Shown here in pieces: positions 2,028-2,900 of a stretch of 64,000 bases of DNA. Under the pieces are notes generated by a model. It was not told the DNA's origin and did not search any database. It worked only from the letters and a program-made list of their open reading frames with translations. Source of the stretch: Euglena gracilis (lineage: Eukaryota); assembly GCA_039621445.1 (NCBI GenBank), contig CP154954.1, positions 38,115,703-38,179,702 of the forward strand, written 5' to 3'. A program made the translations under genes and the position numbers. The first letter of the stretch is position 1. Every line of letters starts with the position of its first letter.

Positions 2028-2900
2028 TCACGGCCCTGCGACATGGACCTCCCGCTGGTGGCCATCCCGGAGGACGGACAGCGTCGCCCCCTGGGGTCCC
2101 CGAAGGAGGTTGACCAGCTGCGCCGCCTCGTGCACGGGGTGGCCGGCGCACGCCGTGATGACGTCCCCCTCCTCCAGCCCCGCCTGGAACATGGTCCGTT
2201 GGACGACGGCACGCGGAGCGGCGATGCAGGCTTCAACGCAGGACGAATCAAATCCACGTCCGCCTGTCTCCCCGTTCGTCTGCCATCTTCCAGTCCTAAG
2301 GACCCCCCAAACCTGCGATTCACTTCCCAAGCTGCTTAAGAGCATCTCACCCGCCTTGTCGACTCTCCTGATCGCCTCCATGAAAATGGGCCAGATGGAC
2401 GTTCTCATACACGACAGGCACGCGCAAACAAACGCAAACAGGAGGGTCGGCACACCTTTTGGGCAACGGACGGCCGCTGGACGCGGGTCACAGCCAGCCC
2501 CGAGGGGGTGCTCTGGAGCAGGCTGTTGCTTAAAGACCCTGGGGGGGTCCTCTGGCTTGCCATTTTGCTAGACAACGGAAAAAATGGAGCTAGACCCCCC
2601 CAAAAAGCCGAAAATGGGCATTTTTGGCCAGTGTTGGGGGTCCAAAAAATTTTTGGCGCTTCGCGCTGGTCATTGGAAAAAGAAAACATTTTTCCACTAG
2701 CCAGCCTTGCCAGACCCCGGCGGGGGGGTCTGCCAGGGTAGGGTTTCCATCAGCCAAATTTGGACAAGCTGCAGTCCAGCCCCCCCTCCCCCAGGAGGGT
2801 GCTGAGAACCCTCAAGCAGAAGCCTGCTCTGGAGGGCCAACCCCAGCGGGCCCACCCTTGGCCGCGCGGTCGGCATCGCCGCGAGGGCATGCAGGAGGTC
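2028..2900 (-). CDS. PDZ-domain exons of gene 1 (~2830-2900, 2456-2513, 2028-2183)
   Basis: Spliced peptide RVGPLGLALQ|STPSGLAVTRVQRPSVAQK|AGLEEGDVITACAGHPVHEAAQLVNLLRGPQGATLSVLRDGHQREVHVAGP* has the PDZ pattern (LGL...V..V...S.A..AGL..GD.I....G). Intron 2184-2455 is GT-AG. Confidence 0.85.

Follow-up and report, generated by a model that had tools for sequence, protein, structure and literature searches.

In a 64-kb stretch of Euglena gracilis DNA (64,000 nt of contig CP154954.1, positions 38,115,703 to 38,179,702; "the window" below, numbered from its first base), a putative coiled-coil/PDZ gene on the minus strand carries a 308-bp inverted-repeat element at 2519-2826, within what is predicted to be its PDZ-coding exon. 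The element is present in the DNA but absent from the mRNA. Exactly 316 nt (2514-2829) are removed at the RNA level, comprising the element and one copy of the 8-bp duplication that flanks it, and the borders do not fit a canonical intron. We consider it quite probable that a hAT-type MITE (miniature transposable element with inverted repeats) inserted in this exon and is removed by the nonconventional splicing of euglenids.

Four public sequencing runs (X1, X15, X16, and X21) were compared over 1500-4400. X21 is on record as RNA-seq, and about 5% of it was read. X15 and X16 (72 to 76 Mb of contigs) are presumed to be RNA, a status that is not on record, and X1 (1.5 Gb of contigs) behaves as genomic DNA. 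A joint that skips 316 nt (2508->2825, with 10 letters ambiguous) was present in the contigs of both X15 and X16 and in 1 X21 read. Its depth was 21.5 in X15 and 28.5 in X16, equal to that of the flanking exons. X15 and X16 each contained one contig of approximately 930 to 940 nt, composed of 1896-2182, 2455-2508, 2825-2901, a 14-nt piece, 3405-3551, and 3998-4132. Four further joints, one of them GT..AG, therefore lie in the same transcript, with the frame open through all five to the stop codon; the neighboring joints were covered by 6, 2, and 6 X21 reads. The depth of the bin 2470-2566 (8.64 in X15 and 11.5 in X16) corresponded to its exon share alone, 39 of 97 nt, indicating that no assembled transcript keeps the left end of the element (2509-2566). 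None of the five joints, 2508->2825 included, was found in the DNA run X1. A preliminary description of this stretch, made from the sequence alone, had placed an intron at 2514-2829 whose retention would shift the frame, and had named cDNA across the junction as the check. The RNA data agree with that placement to within the 10 nt over which the borders can slide. A length of 316 nt (3 × 105 + 1) shifts the frame if retained, and its removal joins both flanking frames.

Anatomy, relatives, and proposed origin of the element

The plus strand of the locus (Table 1) reads flank, CTCTGGAG, CAGGCTGTTGCTTAAAG, approximately 270 nt, CCTCAAGCAGAAGCCTG (ending at 2826), CTCTGGAG, flank. A repeat search returned a 10-nt direct repeat, TGCTCTGGAG, at 2509-2518 and 2825-2834 with a spacing of 316 nt, which consists of the 8-bp CTCTGGAG and 2 more matching bases. 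The same search returned an inverted pair, 2511-2531 and 2814-2834, with 81% complementarity across 21 nt. The terminal inverted repeats (TIRs), read inward from the CAG ends, agree at 12/15 and 13/17 positions. Open frames inside the element are only 42 to 77 codons long, and all cross low-complexity sequence. The TIRs, the 8-bp duplication flush with the termini, and the small size are features of a MITE, and the perfect 8-bp duplication and the TIR of 12/15 that the earlier MITE call at 2511-2834 had listed were confirmed by the recount.

The chance level of this structure was estimated by scanning the window for CAG...CTG 40 to 3,000 bp apart with a perfect, flush 8-bp repeat and a TIR of at least 10/14. 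Two sites were found (2519-2826 and 46112-46379), compared to a mean of 0.01 and a maximum of 1 in 100 dinucleotide shuffles. With one mismatch allowed in the repeat and a TIR of at least 9/14, there were 8 sites versus a mean of 1.37 (maximum, 5) in 30 shuffles; the additions include a 190-bp element at 26672-26861 (TIR, 13/14) and a 165-bp element at 43192-43356 (TIR, 11/14). The counts of the terminal-motif pattern alone discriminated weakly (6 versus 1.28 expected, and 8 versus 3.6, with 3/100 shuffles reaching 8).

The sister element at 46112-46379 has a TIR, CAGGCTTCTTTTTAAG, that matches its partner at 15/15 and 16/17 positions. Within the 2519 element, the stretch 2643-2664 matches 46233-46254 at 21/22 (95.5%), and when both elements were aligned together with both reverse complements, only the termini and this center were conserved. 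The preliminary description had assigned both to one TIR family with the same internal hairpin. That kinship holds for the termini (11-13/17) and the 22-nt motif, but it does not extend to anything else visible by blastn, and ggcgcttcgcgc, the 12-mer of the hairpin, has a single different base in the 46112 element, so the hairpins are nearly the same. After removal of the latter, several frames are open on both strands, so open frames do not discriminate its exon context.

Another copy, at 26383-27252, is a closer relative of the 2519 element than the 46112 element is. The left terminus of this copy reads CAGGCTTTTGCTAAAGG, and the right one equals that of the 2519 element except for a 2-nt insertion. 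The nested 190-bp element is part of its additional internal DNA. The window thus holds three related copies in 64 kb, with similarity confined to the termini, the 22-nt motif, and approximately 190 nt of the third copy. Two of the three have a perfect 8-bp duplication, and these differ in sequence (CTCTGGAG and CGCGGGGC). The TIR of the nested element is CAGGGCAGAACGGG / CAGGACAGAACGGG, with a flanking repeat of 7/8. The 165-bp candidate element at 43192-43356 has CAGG ends and likewise an 8-bp flanking repeat of 7/8.

The interior of the 2519 element contains abundant short motifs. The summed k-mer depth in X1 was 15,830 to 229,832 in the interior, compared to approximately 138 in the flanks, and reached approximately 940,000 at position 2766; these high depths come from contigs that match only motifs of 20 to 35 nt. 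One motif of approximately 35 nt at 2752-2786 (CAAATTTGGAC.AGCTGCAG...) is also abundant in RNA contigs, and position 2766 is A in this copy and T in most copies of the motif. The picture is one of CAG-ended elements that form an old and diverse group with common motifs, and not one of a recent burst of identical copies. A metagenome scan with the abundant internal motif returned two loci (L001 and L002), both unrelated sequence with a chance match, and was uninformative on the family. A search of the whole window against Rfam gave no match.

In the sequence of events that we propose, a nonautonomous cut-and-paste DNA transposon (the 308-bp MITE, CAGGCT...AGCCTG) would have inserted in the PDZ-coding exon of the coiled-coil/PDZ gene and duplicated 8 bp of its target, CTCTGGAG. 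The euglenid nonconventional (non-GT-AG) pathway would strip the insertion from the pre-mRNA, so the host gene would still work. The inverted termini would provide the CAG, the CTG, and the pairing of the ends that this pathway uses, while the two duplication copies would provide its 3-nt and 5-nt spacers. Excision of the element with one duplication copy would return the message to its preinsertion state. The arrival by transposition and the hAT-likeness of the element are suggested by its anatomy, and the assignment to the hAT superfamily, which is based on the duplication length, is putative. Short, imperfect TIRs starting with CAG, as in the 2519 element, occur in this superfamily. Duplications of 8 bp are made by hAT elements and likewise by P-type and some other superfamilies. 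In the duplication CTCTGGAG, base 2 is T and base 7 is A, a bias that has been described for Hermes, and 8-bp target duplications are a hallmark of hAT elements (PMC8721813; this and the other papers cited by PMC number are drawn on in excerpt). The element further resembles hAT-superfamily MITEs of the Ac/Ds and Hermes types in its small noncoding body and its foldback symmetry.

Several observations weigh against insertion of a hAT-type MITE and its removal from RNA. The sister duplication CGCGGGGC lacks the T2/A7 bias. Beyond the termini and the 22-nt center, blastn detected no similarity between the 2519 and 46112 elements, and no flanking duplication was found for the copy at 26383-27252. 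The 2519 copy is single copy at the 31-mer level (X1 unitig depth, approximately 131 to 138), and only its short internal motifs are highly repeated. The window has 21 open frames of at least 300 amino acids (aa), and the 10 that were scanned against Pfam matched 0 families and revealed no transposase. The RNA status of X15 and X16 is a presumption, and X21, the only one of these runs recorded as RNA, has the joint in a single read. The X1 DNA shows the filled site only, neither a polymorphism among strains nor an orthologue lacking the intron was seen, and the mobility of the element is deduced from anatomy alone. Finally, double-strand-break repair has been proposed for a recently gained gapC intron of Euglena agilis with 8-nt junction repeats, which were taken as a sign of such repair and not of a transposon (PMC4770533).

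Applied to this locus, such repair would make 2514-2829 a nonconventional intron without a transposon, in which filler was captured during the repair of a double-strand break, the 8- to 10-nt repeat is microhomology or the fill-in of a staggered break, and the inverted ends were selected for splicing. We regard this as improbable. It is in keeping with the failure to find an empty site in the X1 DNA, a transposase in the 10 open frames, or a near-identical copy. However, two elements with related termini and perfect 8-bp repeats of different sequence stand flush to CAG...CTG where 0.01 was expected, and the same 64 kb includes another related copy, the third, as well as the nested element, whose TIR is 13/14. 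The internal motifs are also massively repeated in the genome, and selection for pairing would not give the identical terminal sequence CAGGCTTCT at unrelated loci.

Presence in DNA and absence from mRNA

If the element were missing from an allele or a paralogue, or were lost from DNA by somatic excision, the joined RNA would not require splicing. The joined sequence reads exactly as an empty site would, and contigs cannot prove the absence of rare DNA variants. However, X1 unitigs cross both element/flank junctions unbranched and at the depth of the flanks, which is that of single-copy sequence (1500-2546, depth 138; 2766-2930, depth 131), and the joint is not listed for this run. X1 also carries the same variant letters as the RNA runs at 2131, 4034, and 4046, indicating that it is close to the strain of those runs. 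The molecule represented by the RNA contigs also has the other four intron joints. Moreover, precise restoration is not the usual outcome of hAT-type excision, which tends to leave footprints. An origin of the joined RNA from insertion-free DNA is therefore very unlikely.

A direct repeat combined with a strong stem is a classic setting for template switching, and the computed fold of this intron is strong. The joint might accordingly be a cDNA or assembly artifact, produced by a reverse transcriptase that jumped between the 10-nt direct repeats brought close by the hairpin. This is hardly plausible, since the same joint occurs in three runs from three studies (dated 2015, 2025, and 2026), the depth of the joined form equals that of the flanking exons, and 2509-2566 is not covered by any unspliced contig. 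In addition, retention of the 316 nt shifts the frame while removal restores a continuous PDZ domain, and the junction follows a code that was validated genetically in vivo (PMC12501133).

Intron borders and the CAG/CTG code

Because the 10-nt repeat slides, 11 placements of the intron yield an identical mRNA. An ordinary spliceosomal intron, of the kind called an introner, that uses splice sites from the element or the duplication is scarcely credible: other protists provide well-documented cases of spliceosomal introns that derive from transposons (PMC11282704 and PMC7789003) and the neighboring intron 2184-2455 is GT..AG, but 0/11 placements compatible with the mRNA have GT-AG, GC-AG, or AT-AC ends, and none of the 11 candidate 3' ends is preceded by a pyrimidine tract.

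The nonconventional code of Euglena has been determined by knock-in mutagenesis as a 3-nt spacer followed by CAG at the 5' end, CTG followed by a 5-nt spacer at the 3' end, a purine at the acceptor, and pairing near the motifs (PMC12501133). Of the 11 placements, only 2514-2829 has CAG at +4 to +6, CTG at -8 to -6, and a purine as the first base of the downstream exon. This intron starts with GAG-CAG and ends with CTG-CTCCA, and the next base is G. Both the minimum-free-energy and the centroid fold close the intron via the TIRs (-154.6 kcal/mol; z, -2.84), and 1/100 shuffles was as stable. The element itself begins with the CAG and ends with the CTG of the splice code. The upstream duplication copy ends in the 3-nt spacer, and the downstream copy starts with the 5-nt spacer. 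Since the spacers of 3 and 5 nt sum to the 8 nt of the duplication, what is excised is the element along with exactly one copy of the duplication, which returns the mRNA to the preinsertion sequence and reading frame. The same 3 + 5 geometry and the purine are found for the 46112 element on either strand.

In the same gene, intron 2901-3078 also fits the CAG/CTG code. Its ends, CAGAGATGG / CAGGGATGG (8/9), resemble the Ac/Ds terminus, and it has only 2 nt of sliding and no recognizable 8-bp duplication. Introns 3094-3404 and 3552-3997 are noncanonical and lack the CAG/CTG code.

Going by the literature on such introns, removal of 2514-2829 would be independent of the spliceosome, would follow that of the conventional introns, and would give a circular intron. 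No back-joint of a circular product was among the joints listed for the compared runs. The intron resembles the nonconventional introns of E. gracilis and E. agilis in its non-GT-AG borders, paired ends, CAG/CTG positions, purine, and slidable borders (PMC12501133, PMC3935182, and PMC11282704). It differs from the published ones in that one discrete element can be delimited, which has TIRs and relatives elsewhere and is flanked by a perfect 8-bp duplication. The maize element Ds, according to work that Giroux et al. reportedly presented in 1994, is also spliced from transcripts. In contrast to hAT MITEs, spliced Ds included, the 2519 element is removed exactly and by the nonconventional code, not by cryptic GT-AG sites. 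The introners of Micromonas, Aureococcus, and dinoflagellates are similar in that a DNA transposon in an exon is removed as an intron and the target duplication restores the mRNA (PMC11282704 and PMC7789003). However, those introners have canonical splice sites and form families of highly similar copies, whereas the 2519 element has no canonical placement and no near-identical copies were seen. The noncanonical introners of Amoebophrya, a dinoflagellate parasite from a different lineage, share noncanonical borders, inverted repeats of 8 to 20 nt that pair the ends, and direct repeats over the borders, but the excerpts describe their direct repeats as variable and 3 to 5 nt long and report no CAG/CTG code, compared to a fixed 8 bp split 3 + 5 here (PMC7789003).

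A MITE origin of nonconventional introns was proposed in 2014 on the basis of short inverted ends and junction repeats (PMC3935182). A 2024 review repeats the proposal, and one of its figure legends labels CAG/CTG as TIR and the junction repeats as target site duplications (PMC11282704). From 2014 to 2025, the origin has nevertheless been called a mystery or unclear (PMC3935182, PMC4770533, and PMC12501133). In the literature searches and excerpts covered, we found no report in which a nonconventional intron is delimited as one discrete element that has relatives at other loci and a full target duplication, or in which a delimited family of elements acts as such introns, although supplements may hold such cases. 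Nor did we find in them a statement that the 3- and 5-nt spacers are the 8-bp duplication, to which the legend of the 2024 review comes close (PMC11282704). A literature search on hAT elements and the genome assembly returned no Euglena paper. The locus is a documented example, with one RNA-verified element, that supports the standing MITE hypothesis; it is not a new kind of intron. It gives defined termini (CAGGCTTCT...) and a defined geometry, which make the hypothesis testable genome-wide and by knock-in.

A broader and more tentative possibility, which we hold at somewhat less than even, is that the nonconventional splicing code is itself the insertion footprint of a hAT-type transposon. 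The TIR ends would be the CAG...CTG, the spacers would be parts of the 8-bp duplication, and the pathway would act as an RNA-level transposon eraser, whatever the target. Most nonconventional introns, a class that accounts for approximately 70% of the introns in Euglena, would on this view have CAG-ended MITE families like those at 2519, 46112, 26672, and 43192 as their ancestors. If so, any new insertion of such an element would have its preinsertion message restored, and the splicing machinery may have coevolved with, or may derive from, a transposon system.

Host gene, PDZ domain, and other features of the window

Table 1. Positions of the intron, the element, its relatives, and the adjoining exons in the window
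Feature	Position	Strand	Remarks
Miniature inverted-repeat element body	2519..2826	.	308 bp, 55% G+C, ends CAGGCT...AGCCTG
Target duplication copy, CTCTGGAG	2511..2518	.	Chance extension to 10 nt, 2509-2518
Target duplication copy, CTCTGGAG	2827..2834	.	Direct-repeat search and structural scan
Left terminal inverted repeat, CAGGCTGTTGCTTAAAG	2519..2535	+	13/17 match to right TIR
Right terminal inverted repeat	2810..2826	-	Minus-strand reading CAGGCTTCTGCTTGAGG
Central A/T run and GCGC-TTC-GCGC mini-hairpin motif	2643..2664	.	Small hairpin present in computed fold
Nonconventional intron, 316 nt	2514..2829	-	Element with 3 nt of one duplication copy and 5 nt of the other
Upstream coding exon; predicted PDZ start (LGLAL strand) at its end	2830..2900	-	RNA joints, open frame, profile
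Middle coding exon, 58 nt, predicted next PDZ strand (STPSGLAVTRV...)	2456..2513	-	RNA joints, open frame, profile
Conventional GT..AG intron, 272 nt, within the same predicted PDZ domain	2184..2455	-	Joint 2182->2455: 6 X21 reads, both RNA contigs
Last coding stretch, 51 codons (predicted PDZ C-terminal two thirds) and stop	2028..2183	-	Exon continues as 3' untranslated region to 1896
Sister element 46112-46379, 268 bp, with duplication	46104..46387	.	Perfect 8-bp duplication CGCGGGGC
Third, longer, degenerate family copy with related termini	26383..27252	.	Positions 126-308 of the 2519 element alignable to its right ~190 nt

The stop codon of the host gene is at 2028-2030, and its upstream exons look like a coiled coil. 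Against Pfam, the last exon alone matched PDZ_6 with an E value of 6.1e-6 and 26.3 bits, just below the 27-bit cutoff, and aligned to positions 28-78 of 80 of PDZ_2. Against the PDB, the last 51 codons matched the first PDZ domain of DegP (E value, 0.0049). The two short N-terminal exons (21 and 25 aa), searched separately, had no Pfam match at an E value of ≤10 and are too short alone. A comparison of the last exon with longer homologous proteins gave 45 candidates, none with an E value of ≤0.001, and no cDNA-derived protein was recovered.

For the joined exons, we made a PDZ profile out of relatives of the last exon, 145 of the 150 listed (an E value of ≤0.001 was reached by 230), each extended by 38 residues upstream. 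As the profile was seeded with the last exon, only the gain in the N-terminal part is independent. The RNA-joined exons aligned to positions 5-81 of 86 of the profile, across the junction, with 79.3 bits and a single gap in the loop at the junction. The last exon alone scored 59.4 bits, and 20 shuffled N-terminal parts in front of it gave 58.1 to 63.8 bits. Reading into the intron gave 75.4 bits, and removal of one codon on either side of the junction gave approximately 76 bits. The junction-specific support from homology is small (approximately 4 bits), and it is the RNA data that carry the weight. The preliminary description had read the joined peptide, LGLALQ|STPSGLAVTRV, as continuous PDZ sequence; the alignment across the junction bears this out, and the predicted PDZ domain holds for the spliced host gene.

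Several features of the transcript lie outside the PDZ exons. At the RNA joint 2901->3405, there are 14 additional letters whose one occurrence in the window is at 3080-3093 and with which the frame stays open. They correspond to a 14-nt microexon on the minus strand between two noncanonical introns. A further upstream exon joins the host transcript at 4132. Beyond 1896, the RNA contigs and 13 X21 reads continue with letters that do not adjoin in the DNA, which suggests one more intron, located in the 3' untranslated region after the stop codon.

Long microsatellites are located at approximately 5230-5330, 6950-7060, and 7640-8000, inside or beside the host gene region. They include CA/TG runs and a run of the AAT/ATT type that gives poly-N and poly-I open frames. 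Two composition outliers, 34001-36000 (G+C, 0.416; AT skew, 0.483) and 48001-50000 (GC skew, 0.472; AT skew, -0.348), are probably strand-biased simple repeats.

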